Source: Pseudomonadales bacterium (GTDB lineage Bacteria; Pseudomonadota; Gammaproteobacteria; Pseudomonadales; GM7GCV1). From it: a stretch of 64,000 bases of DNA. The position numbers and the translations under genes are program-made. This document shows, in pieces, positions 29,543 through 40,048 of the stretch (positions are counted from its first letter, which is position 1; each line of letters opens with the position of its first letter). The notes beneath the pieces were generated by a model. That model did no database searches and was not told where the DNA came from. It worked only from the letters and a program-made list of their open reading frames with translations. Location: contig CBFICI010000002.1 of the NCBI GenBank assembly GCA_965661125.1, positions 195,196 through 259,195 on the forward strand, in the 5' to 3' direction.

Positions 29543-30163
<621 letters not shown>

Positions 30164-30280
30164 CGGTGCCCAATTGGGTAGAATTCTCTCCCTTTTTTCG
30201 CTTTCTGCCGCATACTCTGCCCAAGCGGGCAATACTTTGAGTTACCGCGGCGCTGAAGCTTACTGAAATACGGATTCAAA

Positions 30281-30640
30281 ATGGCACGAATTACCGTTGA
30301 AGATTGTCTGGAAAATGTAGACAACCGATTTGAACTTGTTCTGGTGGCTGCCAAGCGCGCCCGCCAGTTGTTGTCCGGCACACGCGAGCCCCTGGTACCC
30401 TGGGAAAACGACAAACCCACCGTGGTTGCATTGCGTGAAATCGAAGAAGGGCTGGTGGACGCTTCCATCCTCACCGAAGAAACCCCGGACGAGCTGTTTG
30501 ACACCGAGTTAACCTCCGATGTACCTGCTGATGTGCTGGTCGAGGGCAGCACGACAAACATGGTTCGCGGCACCGCTGCTATCCTGGAAGAAACGCCCCC
30601 CAGCAGCTTCAATCCCAACCCGGACGGCGAGGAGGAGTAA
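30281..30640 (+). CDS. rpoZ: DNA-directed RNA polymerase omega subunit
   Basis: 119 aa. The [27 protein letters not shown]-terminus is characteristic. Confidence 0.95.
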
Positions 30641-30678
30641 TTACTCCCGCAACCGGAGCCACAATTCTTCGGAGGTAA

Positions 30679-32799
30679 GTGTTGAGCGGCATCGACGAGC
30701 TGTGTGAGCGGCTCAGCTCTTACCTTGAGCCTGAACAAATAAAGAAGGTTCGCAAAGCCTATACCTTTGCCGAGCAGGCCCACGAGGGCCAATACCGCAA
30801 AAGCGGTGAACCCTACGTTACCCATCCACTGGCAGCAGCCAATGTGCTTGCAGATATGCACATGGATCATCAGTGCCTGATGGCCTGCCTGTTGCACGAT
30901 GTCATAGAAGATACCCCCGCCACCAAGCAGGGCCTGCAGAAAAAATTCGGTGCCACTGTGGCCAACCTGGTCGATGGTGTAAGCAAGCTGAACAAAATGG
31001 AATACGCCGGCGACACGCGCGAAGAACAGCAGGCGGAAAACTTTTTGAAAATGGTGCTTGCCATGTCGCGCGATATTCGTGTGATTCTGGTGAAGCTGGC
31101 CGATCGGCTGCATAACATGCGCACCCTCGAGGCACTTGAGCCAAACAAGCGCCGTCGAATTGCCAAGGAAACTCTGGAAATCTATGCGCCCATCGCCCAG
31201 CGCCTGGGCATTAACGACATGCGTCTGGAATTTGAAGACCGGGGGTTTGCCGCCTACCACCCCATGCGCGCCCGGCGCCTTGCCGTTGCACTGGAAAAAT
31301 CGCGCAAGCGGCGGCGCGATCTGGTGATGGAAATTCAGCAGGCTATCGAGATACGACTTGAGCGCGAAGAATTCCATTGCCAGGTGATGGGCCGCGAAAA
31401 GCACCTTTACAGTATCTACCGCAAGATGCGCGACAAACACCTGCCATTCAAACAGATTATGGACGTGTTCGCTTTCCGCATTGTTGTAGATACGGTGGAT
31501 GAGTGTTACCGGGTGCTGGGCGTGGTACACAACCTCTTCAAGCCGGTGTCGTCCGAATTCAACGATTACATTGCCATACCCAAGGCCAACGGCTACCAGT
31601 CGCTGCATACCGGGCTAATCGGCAGTCACGGTGTGCCTATCGAAATCCAGATTCGCACTAGAGAAATGGACGACATGGCCAACTACGGCATTGCGGCACA
31701 CTGGTTTTACAAATCCCAGGGCGATAGCCAGGCTGTTTCCACACGTGCCACCGACTGGATTAAGGGGCTGTTGGAAATCCAGCAGCAGGCCGGCAACCCG
31801 CTGGAGTTCATCGAGCACGTCAAAACTGACCTCTTCCCCGACGAAATTTACGTCTTCACACCCAAAGGAAAAATCATCACTCTGCCGGGCGGAGCCACGC
31901 CGGTCGACTTTGCCTATACGGTGCATACTGACGTGGGCAACAGTTGTGTAGGTGCTCGTATCAACAACCGCCTGGCGGCACTGTCAGAAAAACTGCAAAG
32001 CGGCCAACGCATTGAAGTACTCACCGCCAGCAAGGCCCAGCCGCACCCGGGCTGGCTGGATTTTGTGGTAACCGCCAAGGCGCGCAGTGCCATTCGCCAC
32101 GACCTCAAGAACCGCCAGCATGACGACTCGGTTCGTCTGGGCAGGCGCCTGCTGAACAAGGTACTTTCCGAGATCAACCTGAGCCTTGATGACATCACCC
32201 AGGAACATATCGATCAGTGTGTGAGTCAGTACCAGGTAGACTCCTTTGAAGCCGTGCTGGAACAGGTTGGAATGGGAGACCGTCAGGCCTGGTCAGTGGC
32301 CAAGCAGCTGGCGCAGGAAGACCTGGGCGAGGGACTTTCGAAACAACTGGATACGCCGGTGGTGATCGATTCGGCAGATACCCACATTATCAGCTTCGCC
32401 GGCTGCTGCCGGCCCATTCCCGGCGACCCCATTATTGGTCACTTCAGCGCCGGCCGCGGCATGGTGATTCATCAGGACAACTGCAAGAATATTGCCGATG
32501 CCAGAAAAGACCCTGAAAAAATCGCACGCGTCAGTTGGGCAGCCGAGGTGCAGGGCGAGTTTCAAACCGAGCTTTGGGTTGAAGTAGAGATGTTCCGCGG
32601 CATTGTGGCCGAGCTGGCCTCTCGTATTTCATCCTGCAATGCCGGAATCGACCACATCAGTATTGAGGAGCGCGGTTCGGCTCTCAGCGTGTTGAAGCTT
32701 TATATTCGCGTGCGCGACCGGGTGCATCTGGCTAACATCATCAAACGTATCCGGCTGATCCCTGCCGTAACAAGGGTGCGCCGCGGTCGCAACGTGTGA
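30679..32799 (+). CDS. spoT: Bifunctional (p)ppGpp synthetase/hydrolase SpoT
   Basis: 706 aa. Intact HD hydrolase motif (LLHDVIEDT). Synthetase, TGS and ACT regions present. Follows rpoZ. GTG start at 30679; TTG at 30682 is equally possible. Confidence 0.92.
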   Translation: MLSGIDELCERLSSYLEPEQIKKVRKAYTFAEQAHEGQYRKSGEPYVTHPLAAANVLADMHMDHQCLMACLLHDVIEDTPATKQGLQKKFGATVANLVDGVSKLNKMEYAGDTREEQQAENFLKMVLAMSRDIRVILVKLADRLHNMRTLEALEPNKRRRIAKETLEIYAPIAQRLGINDMRLEFEDRGFAAYHPMRARRLAVALEKSRKRRRDLVMEIQQAIEIRLEREEFHCQVMGREKHLYSIYRKMRDKHLPFKQIMDVFAFRIVVDTVDECYRVLGVVHNLFKPVSSEFNDYIAIPKANGYQSLHTGLIGSHGVPIEIQIRTREMDDMANYGIAAHWFYKSQGDSQAVSTRATDWIKGLLEIQQQAGNPLEFIEHVKTDLFPDEIYVFTPKGKIITLPGGATPVDFAYTVHTDVGNSCVGARINNRLAALSEKLQSGQRIEVLTASKAQPHPGWLDFVVTAKARSAIRHDLKNRQHDDSVRLGRRLLNKVLSEINLSLDDITQEHIDQCVSQYQVDSFEAVLEQVGMGDRQAWSVAKQLAQEDLGEGLSKQLDTPVVIDSADTHIISFAGCCRPIPGDPIIGHFSAGRGMVIHQDNCKNIADARKDPEKIARVSWAAEVQGEFQTELWVEVEMFRGIVAELASRISSCNAGIDHISIEERGSALSVLKLYIRVRDRVHLANIIKRIRLIPAVTRVRRGRNV

Positions 32800-32813
32800 C
32801 GCAGGGCAGTAAG

Positions 32814-32902
32814 CATCTGACCCCTGCGGGGTCAGACACTTGGCAACCATCGGAACTTGTGAGGCTTTGATGCCAGCATCTGACCCCTGCGGGGTCAGAC
32901 AC
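32814..32902. repeat. REP-like palindromic elements, cluster A (2 direct copies of GCATCTGACCCCTGCGGGGTCAGACAC)
   Basis: Copies at 32814-32840 and 32876-32902, in the spoT / BCCT convergent intergenic region. Confidence 0.9.
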
Positions 32903-32905
32903 TGT

Positions 32906-34894
32906 TTATCGGAAGCTGGTGTAAAACTGCAGGTGCTGCGAATACTGGGCCATAATATCCGCCAGAATATGTTCTTCACTCCAACCCATCACGCAATAAT
33001 CCTGGCCGCCTTCGCTTAAATGCACCTCGGCGCGATAGTACTTTTCATCCGCTTCGAGCTGTTCCATGGGCTTGCCGGTACCCTCAATTTGAGGGTGCAC
33101 ATGGGGCCTGCAAATTACCTCGTACAGAAAATCGCGCTCGCCGCCGTGAAATACCTCCAACCGGGCCGAATCGCTTGAATCCACCTCGTCGTTTACCTTT
33201 GCGTCTACATCATGGCCACGCAGCTCCTCGGCAAATTTGCGCATGGCGGGCAACACCACTTCCTTTTGATACTTCAGCACCTTGCGCCGCGCCGGGTACT
33301 CCAGAAGCCGGTGCAGGCGCTGTTTCCAGTCGGTATCCAGTTGCGAGGTGTGTTGCGTGGTGGCGAGCAATTGCCGTTTGTTGGCATCCAGCCGAAGCGC
33401 CTTGCTGAAGCCCCAGATCGCCCACATCAGGGCAAAGGAAAAAGGCAGAGCGCCGGCAATGGCGGCCGCCTGAAGCGAGGCCAACCCACCGCCCACCAAC
33501 AACGCCATCGTGATCAGCGCAATAGCAACCGTCCAGTACACGCGCTGCAGCGCCGGCGTGTTGTCGCAACCGTCCGATGACAGCATATTCAGTACCATGG
33601 CCCCGCTGTCGGCAGAGGTCACAAAAAACACCACAACCATGAAAATACTGACAGTAGAAAGCACTTCGGCCATTGGCCAAAACTCGAAAAACCGGAACAG
33701 GGCAACCGCCTGATTTTCCTGCACCGCCGCGCCAAACTCTGTGGCACCGCCGTGCAATATCATTTCTATCGCCGCGTTACCGAATACGCTCATCCAGAAC
33801 AGGTTGAACAGGCAGGGCACCAGCATGGCACCCAGCACAAACTCGCGAATGGTGCGGCCGCGCGAAATACGGGCAATAAACAACCCCACAAAGGGTGACC
33901 AGCTAAGCCACCAGCCCCAGTAGAAAATAGTCCAGCCACCCAGCCAGTCGGTGGGATTGTAGGCATACAGGTTGAATGTTTTTGGAATCACTTCGCCCAG
34001 ATAAGTGCCAATATTTTGCATAAAGCCCTGCAAAATAAGCACGGTGGGACCTGTAATCAGAACACCCACCAACAGAATAACCGCAAGCGCTATATTAATT
34101 TCGCTAAGCCGCTTGATGCCAGCATCCAGCCCCATCACAACCGATATGGTCGCCAAACCCATGGTGGCAACGATTAAAACAAGCTGCACGCCCACGCCAA
34201 TGGGGATGCCCAGCAAGTAGTTCAGCCCGGTATTGATTTGCACCACACCCAGGCCGAGGCTGGTACCAACGCCCAGAGTGGTACTGAGGATGGCAAATAC
34301 ATCGACCGCAGTGCCAATGGGCCCATAGATGCGCTCGCCAATCAGCGGGTACAGCGCCGAGCGCAGCGTAAGCGGCAGGCCCTGACGATGCGCAAAATAG
34401 GCCAGAATCAACGCCACAATGGCGTATATCGACCAGGCGTGCACACCCCAGTGGAAGAAAGTCAGCGAAAAGGCCTCGTTGGCTGCGGCAGGCGTGCCGC
34501 CCTCGCCGTGCGGCGGCGACAAAAAGTGCATAACCGGCTCGGCCACGCCGTAAAACATCAAACCAATGCCCATACCGGCGGCGAACATCATGGCGAACCA
34601 GGAAACAAAACTGTATTCCGGTTCGGAGTGATCGGGGCCCAGCTTGATGTCACCTACGCGGGTAAAACCGAACAGCATCACACTGACGAGAATAATGGCT
34701 ACCACCAGCACGTAATACCAACTGGCATATTCGATGATGCCGCCAAGCATGCCGGCAAAAAAGGCCTGGCTGGAATCCGGTGCCAGGGCCGCAAAGGCTA
34801 CCAGGGCAAGAAGCAAACCGGTGGCGGTGAAAAACACCGGCCGGTTCACGTAAAAGGCATTTTTGCTTTGGTTTTCGCTGATTTCCTGATTCAT
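32906..34894 (-). CDS. BCCT-family transporter, BetT-like (choline / quaternary-ammonium) with a long hydrophilic C-terminal tail
   Basis: Start set at MNQEISENQSK (GGAAGG SD; ATGA overlap with the upstream gene). 12 TM segments with the Trp-rich WTIFYWGWWLSWSPFVG BCCT signature. A ~155-aa cytoplasmic tail ends …YYRAEVHLSEGGQDYCVMGW…. Confidence 0.88.
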   Translation of the reverse strand: MNQEISENQSKNAFYVNRPVFFTATGLLLALVAFAALAPDSSQAFFAGMLGGIIEYASWYYVLVVAIILVSVMLFGFTRVGDIKLGPDHSEPEYSFVSWFAMMFAAGMGIGLMFYGVAEPVMHFLSPPHGEGGTPAAANEAFSLTFFHWGVHAWSIYAIVALILAYFAHRQGLPLTLRSALYPLIGERIYGPIGTAVDVFAILSTTLGVGTSLGLGVVQINTGLNYLLGIPIGVGVQLVLIVATMGLATISVVMGLDAGIKRLSEINIALAVILLVGVLITGPTVLILQGFMQNIGTYLGEVIPKTFNLYAYNPTDWLGGWTIFYWGWWLSWSPFVGLFIARISRGRTIREFVLGAMLVPCLFNLFWMSVFGNAAIEMILHGGATEFGAAVQENQAVALFRFFEFWPMAEVLSTVSIFMVVVFFVTSADSGAMVLNMLSSDGCDNTPALQRVYWTVAIALITMALLVGGGLASLQAAAIAGALPFSFALMWAIWGFSKALRLDANKRQLLATTQHTSQLDTDWKQRLHRLLEYPARRKVLKYQKEVVLPAMRKFAEELRGHDVDAKVNDEVDSSDSARLEVFHGGERDFLYEVICRPHVHPQIEGTGKPMEQLEADEKYYRAEVHLSEGGQDYCVMGWSEEHILADIMAQYSQHLQFYTSFR

Positions 34895-36906
34895 TGGCCT
34901 TCCGGGTTTTCGGGAGTGGGATAAGACTCGAGAGCCGGCGTCAAAGCTTGCTTCAAAGGCCCCAACCAGGGTTCGAAACTGCGCCACTGGTTGACGCCGG
35001 TTTGATAAATGGGCTGCCGTACCTGTTCCGAGCTGGCCGTTCTGACGGCCCGCTCTGTCTTGTAAAACTCCAGGCATGACCGCTCAAAGGGAAGCTCGCA
35101 GTAATCGAGAATGCGCTTCACCTGATTCTCGAGGTCGACGGTAACCTCTTCGTAGCACACCTTCAATACCGCACCAGGTATGACCTCATCCCAATAATCC
35201 ATCAGAGTGACATAGTCGTTGTAGTAACGGGCAATGTCATCAAGGCTATAGGAGAACTCCTGCCCTTCGGCAAAAAGTTGTTTGAAACCACTGAAACAGC
35301 AAGCAATCGGATGCCTGCGCGCATCAATAATTTTTGCGTTGGGCAGAATGGCTTTTATCAGGCCGATGTGCCTGAAATTGTTCGGCATTTTGTCGATAAA
35401 ATAGGGGGCCGAACCGCGGTGTATCCTGGTTTCGTCAATGTATTGCTGGCCCAGTTTATGCAGCTCTTCGGGCGGCAATGACCCAATCAGGTCAGGGTAT
35501 TTGCCAGCGCCCTCTTGACCGTGCCCTTTGCGACGCAGTTTCTGCGCTATGGAGAGCATGTTGGGCAGCTCGAGCGTTCCGTCGACCATGCTGTGGGACG
35601 AGAGAATTTGCTCCAGCAGAGTCGAACCGGCGCGGGGCAAACCGACAATAAAAATCGGGGCGGGGTCGGGGCAGCCCGATGCCGCCAGCCTCTTGATAGT
35701 TTCGCCACTGAAAAATGCGCGCTGTGACAGCAGCTCTTCGGTCATTTGTTCTGCCGTGTAGCGGCTTTGCTGCTTTTTGTAGCGGTTGCCCTCTTGATAG
35801 TAGGCAAATGAACGCGACCAGTCTTGCCTGTCTTCGAAGGCCTTGCCCAGGGCGAAATGGATATAAACGCGGCCGGCAGAGGTCACCGAGTCCCTCTCGA
35901 CCAGCTCGAGCATGGCCTGCACCTCATCATCCGAAAACTCGTAGGTTTTCAGGTTGGACAGCGAATAGTAGGCCTCGCCATGGTCTGGTTTGTGTGCGAT
36001 TGCGGCCCGATAGCTTTCAATCGCTTCGCTTTGTTTGCCCCAGGTTTTCAGGGCATGCCCCTTGCCCGTGTGGGTCAGGGCATCATGGGGTATGCGCTCG
36101 AGCACCCGGTTAAACATAGCCACGGCTTCAGCGTAATCGCCAATTTGCATTTTCTCGATGGCATAAACAGACTGAAACTGCGGGTTCTGCGGATCACTGC
36201 GGTACAAGGCTTCGGCCGCCTTCAACGAGGCTTCAAACTTCTGCCTCCTGCGCAACACGGCAATGTGGTCGATTCTGATCTGGCTATTGTCGGGCGCAAA
36301 GGTGCTGGCACTATCCAGCAGGAACTCGGCTTCTTCCATGGCGCCCAGTTGCATGGCAATGTCTGCCAGTAATCGCATGGCCTCAGGGTGTGTGGCATTT
36401 TGCTGCAAAAACTTTTTGCACAGGGCTTCGGCCTTCACCAGCTTGCCCTGGGCGATCAGGTCGGTTACCGAAACCAGTGTCTTCGGCAATGCATGCAAAC
36501 GCTGAATTTGGGCAATGGCCTGCTGGCAAGCCATGGCATTGCCTTGCAACTGGTGAAGCTCAGCCTGATTTTGCCAACTTGAAATAAGTGCCGGGTTCAT
36601 CTGACAGGCGGTTTGAAAAGCGGCAAGAGCCTGAGGCATTTGCTTGCGGGCGCGATAGAGATACCCCTGCTCTTGGTATACCCGCCCCTTGTCTGCCGCC
36701 AGGTCCTTGATGGCATTCAGGTGTTTCTGGGCCTGGTCAAAGCTGTTTGTGTAGCGGCAGCAAACCGCCGCCATGTAGTTGGCGTCCGCATGAGGCTCCT
36801 GCAACTGCAACATCGGCTGCAAATCGTCCAGCGCGGCGTCAAACTGCCCCGCTGCAATTTTTTTCTGAATGTCGGTGATATCGAAGTTCATACTGTTTTC
36901 TGTCAT
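34891..36906 (-). CDS. TPR-repeat protein fused to a PAPS-dependent sulfotransferase domain
   Basis: 671 aa. The N-terminal ~380 aa are TPR-like helical repeats. The C-terminal domain has a 5-prime-PSB loop GLPRAGSTLLEQIL and RRHPIACCFS (3-prime-PB-like). Confidence 0.8.
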   Translation of the reverse strand: MTENSMNFDITDIQKKIAAGQFDAALDDLQPMLQLQEPHADANYMAAVCCRYTNSFDQAQKHLNAIKDLAADKGRVYQEQGYLYRARKQMPQALAAFQTACQMNPALISSWQNQAELHQLQGNAMACQQAIAQIQRLHALPKTLVSVTDLIAQGKLVKAEALCKKFLQQNATHPEAMRLLADIAMQLGAMEEAEFLLDSASTFAPDNSQIRIDHIAVLRRRQKFEASLKAAEALYRSDPQNPQFQSVYAIEKMQIGDYAEAVAMFNRVLERIPHDALTHTGKGHALKTWGKQSEAIESYRAAIAHKPDHGEAYYSLSNLKTYEFSDDEVQAMLELVERDSVTSAGRVYIHFALGKAFEDRQDWSRSFAYYQEGNRYKKQQSRYTAEQMTEELLSQRAFFSGETIKRLAASGCPDPAPIFIVGLPRAGSTLLEQILSSHSMVDGTLELPNMLSIAQKLRRKGHGQEGAGKYPDLIGSLPPEELHKLGQQYIDETRIHRGSAPYFIDKMPNNFRHIGLIKAILPNAKIIDARRHPIACCFSGFKQLFAEGQEFSYSLDDIARYYNDYVTLMDYWDEVIPGAVLKVCYEEVTVDLENQVKRILDYCELPFERSCLEFYKTERAVRTASSEQVRQPIYQTGVNQWRSFEPWLGPLKQALTPALESYPTPENPEGQ

Positions 36907-36967
36907 AAATTGGCTGCTACAAGCTAAATGGAAACAGGTAGGACGTCACCCCTGTACGGGAAAGCCA

Positions 36968-37000
36968 ATAAAAAGGCCCCACCAAAAAACAGGTGAGGCC
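36968..37000 (-). terminator. Intrinsic terminator downstream of the TonB-dependent receptor
   Basis: On the minus strand: GGCCTCACC-loop-GGTGGGGCC followed by TTTTTATT. Confidence 0.65.
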
Positions 37001-37024
37001 TCTTAGGGTGGGCATCTGTGTCAA

Positions 37025-39421
37025 TTAGAAGTCGAAAGACACACGCACTCCCATGGTTCTGGGGCGCGCCACGGTAACGCGCTCTACCGCATACTGGAAG
37101 GTGCCAGAAATTTCCGCACGCTCGTCAGTCAGGTTGTCCACAAAGAGCTCGGCGCTCCAGGTATCGGTGGTCAAGCCTGCGGTGACACCCAGCAGCATCC
37201 AGCTATCCAATTCCATGCTGTTGGCCGCAACGATGTCTGTTTTTGACCCATCGGAATAGCTCAGGTGTGGCATAACATGCGCCGTACCGGCATCCACATC
37301 CCACTCGTAGCGAGCCTGGGCGTTGGCCTGAAACTCCGGAGCAAACGCCAGGTCTGACCCTTCCACCACGAAGTTGGTCACAAAGCTGTCGGTAATTTCC
37401 GTGTCGAGGAACGAGAAACCACTGCTAACCGACAAACCGCGCACGGCTTCGGGTTGCCAGATGATTTCGCCTTCCAAGCCGGTAATTTGCGCGTCTGCCG
37501 CGTTGTCGGAGAAAAACAGATTAGCAATGCTGGCATCAAAAATGCCGATCTGCATGTCGGTTACGTCAACCCGGAAAATGTCACCATTGAATCGCAGGTT
37601 GTTGTAGTCGAGCTTCCAACCCAACTCGAAGTTGGTGACGGTGTCGGTATCCATTCCGGCTGGCACCGTGTACACACCGTTAGTAGCTCCAAACGGACGG
37701 TTCAGCAGGCCCGGCCGGAAACCTTCAGACCAGGTGGCATAAAACAGCTTGCTGTCCGAAGGTGTCCAAGCCAGGCTGACTTTGCCAATCACACCGTCGG
37801 TAGAGGCCGTGTCGTTTGCACCGCTGAACAGGGTATCCAGGTTGTTACCCGGATTGTTGTCTACCAGCTGACCCTTGTTGCCAAACGATCCCGCAGCACT
37901 GCCCAACAGGTCGACCTCAACGTCGTACCAGCGCGCGCCAAGGATAACGGCAAACTGATCAGAAAGATCGAAGGTTGCTTCACCGAACACACCGCGTTGC
38001 TCATCCGTTCGCAACACGTCATTACGCCAAAGCACGCCTTCCGGATAGGGCCCAGGATCACTCACAGTGGCACCCTGAGCCGGGAAGTTTGGCCCAAAGC
38101 TTTCGGCACCCAGCAGCTCGGAACCCGTGTAGGTGAAATCGTTGCGCTCGCGCAAATCCAGGTCGCTGTAAAACACGCCGAAAGTTGCGCGCATGGCGGC
38201 GTCCGGGTCGGTCGAAAAGCGCAATTCGTGGGTCTGAACTTCAGTGTCTACCGAGCTATTTACAAACAAATATGGCGCCTGACAGGTACCACCCGTTTGA
38301 ACTGCCGAGCCATAAACCACCTGGTTATCGCAAATGTAGTAAGGCATATAGGCAGACACATAGAGGTAGTCTACGTAGTCAACCAGCTGGTTCGACTCGC
38401 GGTTTGTGAAGGCGCCTGTGTAAATGGCATCCAATGCACCAAGCCGACCTTCCAGCGTCCAGTTGAAATTGGTGAAGTCGTCTTCGAGTCGATTCTCTTC
38501 GTAGCGCTGAATTTCCAGATCGTCGAGCGCCGGGTCCTGGAAAAATACCCCTTCCGAGTCGATTGACTGCTGAGAGGCCGCAACCAGCAGGCTCCAATCA
38601 CTGTTGGGCGCCCAAAGCGCGCTGAGGCGCGAGCCCGCGTAGGTTGCTTCGTTGAAGTTGTCTTCTACCCTGCCCCCGTTATCTGCCGGGATAAAGGTAA
38701 TGGGTGCCAGGTTGGCGCCATCGGGGAATCCCGCACCGTCCGCTACGGTAACCGTGCCGGCCACGTTATCGATGTAACCACCCTGGTTGTCGACATATAC
38801 AACGCCGCGCAATGTCAGCGCATCGCTGACAGGAAGGTTGATCATTGCCTCGGCATTGTTGCTGGGCTCACCCCCGGCTGTAGCCGCCGTGCCAAACTTC
38901 ACACTGCCGTATACGCCGGTGGGGTCCGGCTTATTGGTGATCAAGCGCACCGTGCCGGCTTGCGAGCTCGCTCCAAAGAGTGTGCCCTGAGGCCCTTTCA
39001 ACACTTCGACCCGGCTCAGGTCGGCCGCGTAGACATCCAGGTTTCGCCCTGGCTGCGCAAGCGGTTGCTCGTCCAGATAAAAGGCCACGTTGGGCGCAAG
39101 ACCGGCCACACCGGAAGTGCCGGTGGCAGGGGTGGTAGAAGCCAGCCCCCGGATATAAATCGTATTTTGACCCGGGCCAACGCCGCCGGCTGTGACACCT
39201 GGCAGCTGAACCAGGTAGTCGGAAAAGTCGCTAACACCCAGTTGATCCAGCTTTTCTTGAGACATCGCGCTTACGGCGATGGGAATGTCCTGGATGGATT
39301 CAGTGCGCTTGGTTGCCGTAACCAGAATTTCTTCAATTTGCCCCTGGGCAAAAAGCTCCGGCGCGGCCATAGCGGCCGAGGCGGCAATAACAGCCGTGGT
39401 GAGTTTGGTCTTGCGAAACAT
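37025..39421 (-). CDS. TonB-dependent outer-membrane receptor
   Basis: Start at the second ATG (AAGGGGA SD). Signal peptide …ELFAQG. Plug motifs (IEEILVTATKR, DIPIAVSA). C-terminal …RVSFDF. Confidence 0.9.
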   Translation of the reverse strand: MFRKTKLTTAVIAASAAMAAPELFAQGQIEEILVTATKRTESIQDIPIAVSAMSQEKLDQLGVSDFSDYLVQLPGVTAGGVGPGQNTIYIRGLASTTPATGTSGVAGLAPNVAFYLDEQPLAQPGRNLDVYAADLSRVEVLKGPQGTLFGASSQAGTVRLITNKPDPTGVYGSVKFGTAATAGGEPSNNAEAMINLPVSDALTLRGVVYVDNQGGYIDNVAGTVTVADGAGFPDGANLAPITFIPADNGGRVEDNFNEATYAGSRLSALWAPNSDWSLLVAASQQSIDSEGVFFQDPALDDLEIQRYEENRLEDDFTNFNWTLEGRLGALDAIYTGAFTNRESNQLVDYVDYLYVSAYMPYYICDNQVVYGSAVQTGGTCQAPYLFVNSSVDTEVQTHELRFSTDPDAAMRATFGVFYSDLDLRERNDFTYTGSELLGAESFGPNFPAQGATVSDPGPYPEGVLWRNDVLRTDEQRGVFGEATFDLSDQFAVILGARWYDVEVDLLGSAAGSFGNKGQLVDNNPGNNLDTLFSGANDTASTDGVIGKVSLAWTPSDSKLFYATWSEGFRPGLLNRPFGATNGVYTVPAGMDTDTVTNFELGWKLDYNNLRFNGDIFRVDVTDMQIGIFDASIANLFFSDNAADAQITGLEGEIIWQPEAVRGLSVSSGFSFLDTEITDSFVTNFVVEGSDLAFAPEFQANAQARYEWDVDAGTAHVMPHLSYSDGSKTDIVAANSMELDSWMLLGVTAGLTTDTWSAELFVDNLTDERAEISGTFQYAVERVTVARPRTMGVRVSFDF

Positions 39422-39664
39422 GATTTCCCCTTGCATGTGTTTATCGGTACTAGTTTAAAGCATATAGAGATGTATGCAATTTATTAAGCCGCAAATCAGT
39501 GATTTAGCCCAGTATTGCATCAATATCGACTAACTCCAGACCAGAAACGGCCGAAGAGGGGAAAATTATTACTATGTGCTCTATGCATTTAACTGCCTGG
39601 CATCCTCTGGTTGCCCTTGGGTCTGGTGCTAAACTGCCCCTTTACATCAGGAGATAGCTCTCAA

Positions 39665-40048
39665 ATGCCCAACAAAGCCATTATCGATACCGCGAACGCA
39701 CCGGCGGCCATTGGCACCTATTCGCAGGCAGTGAAGGTCAATAACACCGTCTACCTGTCGGGGCAGATACCCCTGGACGCGGACAGTATGGAGCTGGTGG
39801 GCGAAGACGCGGGCGAGCAAATCGAGCAGGTTTTCAAAAACCTGTCAGCCGTATGTGCTGCTTCAGGTGGCGGGCTGGGCGATATCGTCAAGCTGAATAT
39901 TTACCTCACCGACCTGGGCAACTTCGCCAGGGTAAACGAGATCATGGCAACCCACTTCAACGAACCCTACCCGGCGCGGGCTGCCATTGGTGTAAGCGAA
40001 CTGCCGCGCGGCGCCCTGGTTGAAATGGACGCCGTCATGGTGGTGTAG
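39665..40048 (+). CDS. ridA: RidA/YjgF-family reactive enamine/imine deaminase
   Basis: 127 aa from MPNKAII… (AGGAGA SD). [19 protein letters not shown] and [15 protein letters not shown] motifs. Confidence 0.9.

Follow-up and report, generated by a model that had tools for sequence, protein, structure and literature searches.

A conserved gene module pairing a TonB-dependent receptor with a TPR-sulfotransferase and betaine-type carriers, and a candidate role for sulfation in quaternary-ammonium uptake

A 64,000-nucleotide stretch of the genome of a Pseudomonadales bacterium (GCA_965661125.1, contig CBFICI010000002.1, positions 195,196 to 259,195; hereafter the window) carries three consecutive minus-strand genes. 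They encode a TonB-dependent receptor (TBDR), a protein that joins tetratricopeptide repeats (TPR) to a Sulfotransfer_3 domain, and a BetT-like carrier of the BCCT family. These genes very probably constitute one functional module for the uptake of a quaternary-ammonium compound across both membranes. The families of the individual parts are known. The pairing of receptor and sulfotransferase is apparently undescribed, and no paper on it was found in the literature searched. More tentatively, we propose that in many Proteobacteria of marine and fresh waters the enzyme, guided by its TPR array, sulfates tyrosines of the cell's own TBDR in the cytoplasm, which would give the receptor an anionic, aromatic site for quaternary-ammonium nutrients.

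The receptor gene stands first in the unit (positions 37025 to 39421, minus strand) and encodes 798 residues with Pfam Plug and barrel domains, a signal peptide and a TonB box. Its longest open reading frame (ORF) opens at 39436, and the likely ATG lies at 39421, preceded by a Shine-Dalgarno-like AAGGGGA run. The sulfotransferase gene follows (34891 to 36906, minus strand; 671 residues, cytoplasmic, no signal peptide). The carrier gene comes last (32906 to 34894, minus strand) and encodes 662 residues, including a cytoplasmic C-terminal tail of about 160. These last two genes form a coupled pair. They share an ATGA overlap at 34891 to 34894 on the minus strand, in which the TGA of the sulfotransferase (34893 to 34891) meets the ATG of the carrier (34894 to 34892), and a GGAAGG Shine-Dalgarno-like run ends 3 nt 5' of that ATG. 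A 723-residue reading of the carrier, starting at 35077, was rejected because orthologues align from residue 9-15 of the 662-residue form. An earlier note on this DNA had described the two ORFs and their overlap, and both stand as it placed them. Its proposal of a two-gene operon holds for the coupling of sulfotransferase and carrier. The extent of the unit needs revision: a TBDR gene absent from that note lies directly upstream on the same strand, and the pair is part of a TBDR-sulfotransferase(-BCCT) module.

Evidence for a module comes from its conservation. A scan of one genome per species returned at least 576 relatives of the sulfotransferase; the best 80 loci, together with four from a comparison of related genomes, were analysed (84 loci). 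A receptor of the same family adjoins the sulfotransferase in 79 of them, nearly always immediately upstream and on the same strand, and the loci that lack an adjoining receptor are mostly cut by contig ends. Among 41 related genomes, eight have strong sulfotransferase matches, and these eight and no others have the receptor family (E<=1e-80). The three closest sulfotransferase orthologues in this set (53-55% identity) all have a BetT-like BCCT gene immediately downstream, with the receptor upstream as well in two of the three. Sampled evenly, 300 gammaproteobacterial genomes yielded five further genomes with the sulfotransferase. Seven of the nine sulfotransferase genes in this sample, counted outside the window's own genome (G000), have a receptor of the family within about 1.1 kb, and one of the nine has a BCCT gene nearby. 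No BCCT gene was found in G052 and G246, two of the genomes of this sample that hold the sulfotransferase.

The carrier is a frequent but less constant associate. A BCCT gene lies within 10 kb of the sulfotransferase in 42 of the 84 loci, compared with a chance estimate of about 1-2% that assumes one to three BCCT genes in a 3-Mb genome. Five arrangements recur: downstream on the same strand, often overlapping by 4 nt like the window's pair; downstream and convergent; upstream and divergent from the receptor; upstream and co-directional; and a few kb away within a catalytic gene cluster. Overlaps of 4 nt between sulfotransferase and BCCT genes appear in six other loci (L032, L051, L052, L054, L057 and L078), as judged from longest-ORF calls whose bases were not read. 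The linked BCCT proteins fall into at least three subtypes (BetT-like long, short and CaiT-like) and occur in Alpha- and Gammaproteobacteria. A clade of the sulfotransferase tree with 100% support in the Shimodaira-Hasegawa-like approximate likelihood ratio test (SH-aLRT) unites 41 rows from both classes, 32 of which have a BCCT gene within 6 kb. In the window's four nearest kin in this tree, the BCCT is of the short type and its gene diverges from that of the receptor; in the window itself it is long, BetT-like and downstream. Because the association is kept while carrier type and position change, it looks like the outcome of selection for a functional link. The conservation of the sulfotransferase-BCCT pair, on which the earlier note had made its hypothesis depend, therefore extends well beyond the window. 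The note had also entertained a fortuitous linkage, and the 42 loci, the five arrangements and the several BCCT subtypes lead us to set that option aside.

Other loci show how far the composition can vary. Cultured bacteria are represented among the loci analysed by Halioglobus sp. Uisw_031, Marinobacter nauticus DP3N21-5, Glaciecola punicea ACAM 611, Halioxenophilus aromaticivorans KU68F and Sphingorhabdus contaminans. G023 has the module in two parts: on contig 13 the receptor and a BetT-like BCCT are convergent (L136:3301-8300), and the sulfotransferase, followed by a second BetT-like BCCT, lies on contig 5 (L031:8015-12033). Sphingomonadales have an MFS carrier in place of the BCCT, and in some loci the sulfotransferase occurs with MFS carriers or without any carrier. 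The constant partner of the sulfotransferase is the receptor, not the carrier, and the module moves as a unit. One contig labelled Flavobacteriales (L086) holds a receptor-sulfotransferase pair nearly identical to that of a Paraglaciecola metagenome-assembled genome (L083/L086; branches 0.03-0.04). This label probably reflects a binning error and not a transfer to Bacteroidota.

The sulfotransferase had been read earlier as a TPR protein with a domain dependent on 3'-phosphoadenosine 5'-phosphosulfate (PAPS), and profile searches agree. Many Pfam TPR families match over residues ~20-375, and PF13469 (Sulfotransfer_3) scores 164.5 bits against a cut-off of 27 over residues 417-608, within a PAPS-type part that spans ~415-640. 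The N-terminal array of ~380-400 residues is kept in all homologues, and the TPRs of OGT and SPINDLY are among the best sequence matches to residues 65-320. The motifs quoted in support of the earlier call, GLPRAGSTLLEQIL and RRHPIACCFS, are invariant or nearly so in 50 homologues. The same is true of PRAGST, DKMP and RR..S, and SSEQV is invariant but for its first Ser. Given these intact PAPS motifs and a gene for adenosine 5'-phosphosulfate (APS) kinase in the genome (G000:C2:134372-134830, 231.7 bits), sulfotransferase activity is plausible.

The predicted fold of the catalytic domain resembles that of the tyrosylprotein sulfotransferases TPST1 and TPST2. These enzymes are its best relatives of solved structure by sequence, followed by the CurM and olefin-synthase (OLS) sulfotransferases. 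In a Foldseek search of the PDB with the AlphaFold2 model of this domain (predicted local distance difference test, pLDDT, 91.6), TPST1/2 entries occupied all of ranks 1-10 at template modelling (TM) scores of 0.67-0.72, whereas small-molecule SULTs scored below 0.5. The aligned blocks comprise the 5'-phosphosulfate-binding loop PR(A/S)G(S/T)T, the Lys of DKMP/NKDP, the 3'-phosphate-binding RR..S/R..S and the Ser of SSEQV/STDQV. Of the catalytic residues of TPST2, which we take to be R78, E99, K158 and S285, the equivalents of Arg, Lys and Ser align and are conserved. TPSTs differ in lacking an N-terminal TPR array, and their sequence identity to the window protein is only ~20%. A TPR superhelix followed by a transferase domain is also the architecture of OGT and SPINDLY. 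The chemistry there is that of sugars rather than sulfate, and the resemblance is one of domain logic only. As a rule, enzymes that carry a fused TPR array have proteins as their substrates. Together, the TPR array and the modelled TPST-like fold suggest a protein or peptide acceptor more than choline.

The 1.95-Mb genome contains four Sulfotransfer_3 genes in total. One of them encodes a TPR-Sulfotransfer_3 paralogue of 496 residues with 29% identity to the window protein (G000:C3:258110-259438). It has no receptor nearby, and its neighbours are a ComM-like Mg-chelatase gene and a Rep/UvrD helicase gene.

The receptor has the features that define TonB-dependent transporters (TBDTs). Pfam assigns Plug at 66.7 bits and the barrel at 103.3 bits, the TonB box IEEILVTA follows the signal peptide, the C-terminal residue is the aromatic Phe, and the AlphaFold2 model (pLDDT 85.2) contains a plug and a 22-strand barrel. 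Sequence and fold searches of the PDB recovered generic siderophore-type TBDTs only (FyuA, FptA and PiuA folds, 12-18% identity) and no close characterised relative. The distinguishing element is a D-Y-x-D-Y ... YYxC ... C pattern at residues 353-385. In generalised form, D-Y-x-x-Y followed by YYxC...C, it is invariant in sulfotransferase-adjacent receptors down to ~32% identity, and neither the genome's other TBDRs nor the unrelated TBDRs of these loci have D-Y-x-x-Y. In the model, the motif opens extracellular loop 4, between beta7 (330-348) and beta8 (385-403, model numbering). With an acidic residue before the Tyr, D-Y-x-x-Y is an obvious candidate for a sulfation site. In the spacer upstream of the receptor gene (39437-39610), a short dyad GCATA-N8-TATGC is present, to which no known regulator site could be matched. 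Elsewhere in the genome (G000:C2:454802-458836, outside the window), a second TBDR of 772 residues, matched to the window receptor by tblastn at 26% identity, is followed after 45 nt by a 556-residue sulfatase. The two may form an uptake pair for a sulfated compound.

The carrier belongs to the BCCT family, as the earlier note had stated from its Trp-rich signature and long hydrophilic tail. PF02028 matches residues 20-501 at 612.2 bits (cut-off 27), and the signature [GSDN]-W-T-[LIVM]-x-[FY]-W-x-W-W is present as GWTIFYWGWW. The best-scoring NCBIfam model is that of BetT (NF007399), with which carrier residues 9-658 align over model positions 4-659 of 675, tail included. The score of 666.6 bits falls just under the cut-off of 695, and by sequence the protein is best called BetT-like, not a certified member of the BetT subfamily. 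The likeness to E. coli-type BetT thus covers the BCCT core, the Trp-rich signature and a long cytoplasmic C-terminal domain aligning along the whole model. The genetic setting differs from the bet regulon: the module lacks betIBA, and the carrier is coupled instead to a sulfotransferase and a receptor. This BCCT gene is the only one found in its genome. Genes for betA, mttB and FAO_M-type dehydrogenases were not found in that genome, which is 99% complete.

The wider neighbourhoods point to the class of compound. Recurrent neighbours across the 84 loci include MarR and LysR regulators, MFS carriers, a GMC oxidoreductase, an aldehyde dehydrogenase and an enolase-superfamily enzyme. Further recurrent genes encode an M19 dipeptidase with DUF3726, Ldh_2, an MttB-family methyltransferase with its corrinoid protein, PurU and a DAO/FAO_M dehydrogenase. 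We take these to be gene types of the catabolism of choline, betaine and other quaternary amines, and on that basis the theme of the neighbourhood would be onium compounds. A MarR-family regulator of ~168 residues adjoins the BCCT or the sulfotransferase gene in 14 of the 84 loci (L044, L046, L057, L060, L061, L078, L079 and L101, among others). The window's module contains neither a regulator nor a catabolic gene.

Related associations have been reported. TonB loci of SAR86 include esterases and a choline/carnitine/betaine transporter, and uptake of betaine-lipid head groups through such TBDR loci has been proposed (Dupont et al. 2012, PMC3358033). Intake of such head groups would account for the need for a TBDR in the handling of an onium compound. 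Like the window's module, these are TBDR loci of marine Gammaproteobacteria that include a BCCT carrier; they differ in that PMC3358033 mentions no sulfotransferase, and the window's module has no esterase. In a comparison of Pontixanthobacter genomes, the genes that co-occur with halotolerance include a TBDR, a BCCT, a sulfotransferase and a MarR cluster (PMC10040529). Adjacency is not shown in that study, and it is not used as evidence here.

The layout of the unit also bears on its expression. A terminator-like hairpin with a 13-bp stem and a T-run (36971 to 37004, minus strand) lies between the receptor stop and the sulfotransferase start and ends 64 nt before the sulfotransferase ATG. GC-rich hairpins with a T-run occur in 52 of 73 receptor-sulfotransferase spacers of related loci, a raw rate with no background control. 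Their sequences are unrelated, and the spacers are short (14-230 nt in most loci). The spacer hairpin suggests high expression of the receptor and attenuated expression of the sulfotransferase and, in the window, of the carrier coupled to it. Such an attenuator fits a catalytic partner needed in small amounts. A promoter scan found no strict sigma-70-like site in 32500-39800.

The three genes form a 6.8-kb accessory insertion (32800 to 39600) between spoT, which ends at 32799, and ridA, whose ORF runs from 39611. The flanks are housekeeping genes, with gmk, rpoZ and spoT on one side and ridA and typA on the other. In three congeners (G001, G002 and G003), spoT, ridA and typA are contiguous, which identifies the three genes as an insertion here. 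G001 has the same three genes on another contig, and neither an orthologue of the sulfotransferase nor the carrier was found in G002 and G003. The GC content of the insert (~0.53-0.58) does not differ from that of the flanks, and composition accordingly shows no sign of recent foreign origin. At the left edge of the insertion, a GC-rich hairpin (32879 to 32899) between the convergent spoT and carrier genes is a candidate bidirectional terminator. Antisense to spoT, at 30034-31608 on the minus strand, runs a 524-residue ORF with no Pfam match that is most likely spurious.

From these elements, the following scheme can be assembled. The TBDR would capture an onium compound, or a larger molecule bearing such a head group, at the outer membrane, and the BetT-like BCCT would carry the onium compound over the inner membrane. 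The TPR array of the cytoplasmic sulfotransferase would bind the substrate, and the TPST-like domain would transfer sulfate from PAPS, most likely to a protein. The best acceptor candidate would be the precursor of its own receptor, modified before Sec export on the tyrosines of D-Y-x-x-Y in extracellular loop 4. Once sulfated, that loop would place fixed negative charge at the ligand site. With the receptor gene first and a leaky terminator next, sulfotransferase and carrier would be translated as a coupled pair at a lower level. Four features lead us to favour a protein acceptor, and the receptor in particular: the enzyme has a TPR array, its predicted fold is TPST-like, it pairs strictly one-to-one with a single receptor family regardless of carrier or catabolic context, and the receptors share a conserved motif in the loop. 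A protein rather than a small-molecule acceptor is, in our judgement, an even call; that this acceptor is the receptor precursor is a more tentative claim, which we hold at somewhat less than even.

Known systems offer partial precedents. The Xanthomonas sulfotransferase RaxST is cytoplasmic, like the window protein, and its substrate RaxX is exported after sulfation (PMC4892823, PMC4646787). RaxST has also been reported to sulfate the outer-membrane protein Omp1X (PMC4892823). It is tied to peptide and type I secretion genes, whereas the window sulfotransferase is tied to a TBDR gene. In Caulobacter, the function of the transporter CciT strictly needs the cytoplasmic enzyme CciO by a mechanism that is unexplained, and the CciT-CciO pair (with Fiu-YbiX and PiuA-PiuC) resembles the present module in that genes for a TBDT and a cytoplasmic enzyme lie side by side and are co-conserved across Proteobacteria (PMC12004947). 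CciO is an Fe(II)/2-oxoglutarate dioxygenase in Fur-regulated iron uptake (PMC12004947). The enzyme of the window is instead a PAPS sulfotransferase with TPR, the neighbouring genes across related loci encode onium carriers and betaine/choline catabolic enzymes, and no Fur link was seen.

Several observations weigh against sulfation of the receptor. We know of no TBDR in which sulfotyrosine has been shown, and the passage of a sulfated precursor through Sec and BAM is uncertain. The D-Y-x-x-Y motif could equally be a purely structural signature of the family. In the phmmer alignment, a Gly stands opposite the catalytic Glu of TPST and an invariant Glu lies three residues downstream, which leaves the catalytic base uncertain, and the next-best folds, CurM and OLS (TM 0.61-0.63), belong to enzymes that act on non-protein hydroxyls. 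All linked BCCTs score below the NCBIfam equivalog or BetT cut-offs, and the carrier's substrate is therefore not assignable. In the window, the sulfotransferase is cut off from the receptor gene by the terminator-like hairpin and is translationally coupled to the carrier, a layout that fits an order of import and then modification at least as well. The authors of the CciT-CciO work favour small-molecule models for that pair, and the receptor there is still made without the enzyme (PMC12004947).

A rather unlikely alternative is that choline or another hydroxylated onium compound enters through the carrier, with help from the receptor when its concentration outside is low, and that the sulfotransferase O-sulfates it. 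The product would be a zwitterionic solute, for instance choline-O-sulfate, that protects against osmotic stress or is a trapped or stored form. The ATGA coupling in the window, the 4-nt overlaps called in the six other loci, the terminator that separates the sulfotransferase from the receptor gene, and the G023 sulfotransferase-BCCT pair that lacks the receptor at its locus all speak for such a function. With betA, mttB and FAO_M-type genes not found, imported choline would have no known route of oxidation or demethylation; APS kinase is encoded, seawater is rich in sulfate and the genome has sulfatases. Other features argue the other way. What a TPR array of ~380 residues would do for an acceptor of 104 Da is not evident. 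Protein-tyrosine sulfotransferases are nearest in fold and small-molecule SULTs are distant, and the link of the gene to the receptor is closer than its link to any carrier of the inner membrane, as the loci with MFS or no carrier and the genomes G052 and G246 illustrate. The sphingomonad sulfotransferase sits among genes for a choline-oxidation-type GMC oxidoreductase and an aldehyde dehydrogenase, where sulfation would compete with catabolism. No paper on bacterial choline sulfotransferase genes was found, and the family libraries and literature searched contained no sequence model or bacterial gene for choline sulfotransferase (EC 2.8.2.6).

An improbable further option is that sulfate goes to a different protein or peptide in the pathway (the cytoplasmic tail of the carrier, a regulator such as MarR or an unannotated small peptide), or that the enzyme makes or alters the ligand of the receptor, as in the models for CciO (PMC12004947). 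The combination of TPR with a TPST-like domain and the MarR gene beside the BCCT in 14 loci are compatible with this idea, but carrier and MarR are often missing where the sulfotransferase stays. The BetT tail was set aside as a sulfation target: carriers with the same tail occur among BetT-like proteins of genomes in which no sulfotransferase orthologue was found. For a conserved peptide gene, the receptor-sulfotransferase spacer is too short in most loci and too rich in hairpins. It is very improbable that the sulfotransferase acts on an unrelated macromolecule and adjoins the carrier by chance. In favour of chance, a regulator or catabolic gene that could link the three functions is missing from the window's module, and the TPR-sulfotransferase paralogue of the same genome sits among housekeeping genes. 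Against this stand the excess of BCCT neighbours over the chance estimate, the reshuffling of BCCT type and position within one sulfotransferase clade that spans two classes, and the insertion of the three genes as one block.

Choline, betaines and betaine lipids are major marine currencies of carbon, nitrogen and osmolytes, and the way in which they cross the outer membrane of oligotrophs has barely been studied. Through this module, the betaine-type carriers of many abundant marine lineages (Halieaceae, Porticoccaceae, Woeseiaceae and Sphingomonadales among them) are linked to a dedicated family of receptors and to an enzyme for which no known onium pathway has a role. To our knowledge, bacterial tyrosine sulfation is known essentially from RaxST. 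If the receptor is sulfated, tyrosine sulfation would extend to nutrient uptake, and the receptor would be the first tyrosine-sulfated nutrient receptor of bacteria, revealing a new way of tuning outer-membrane transport. If the solute is sulfated instead, the module would contain a gene for the synthesis of choline-O-sulfate or a relative, the first from a bacterium.

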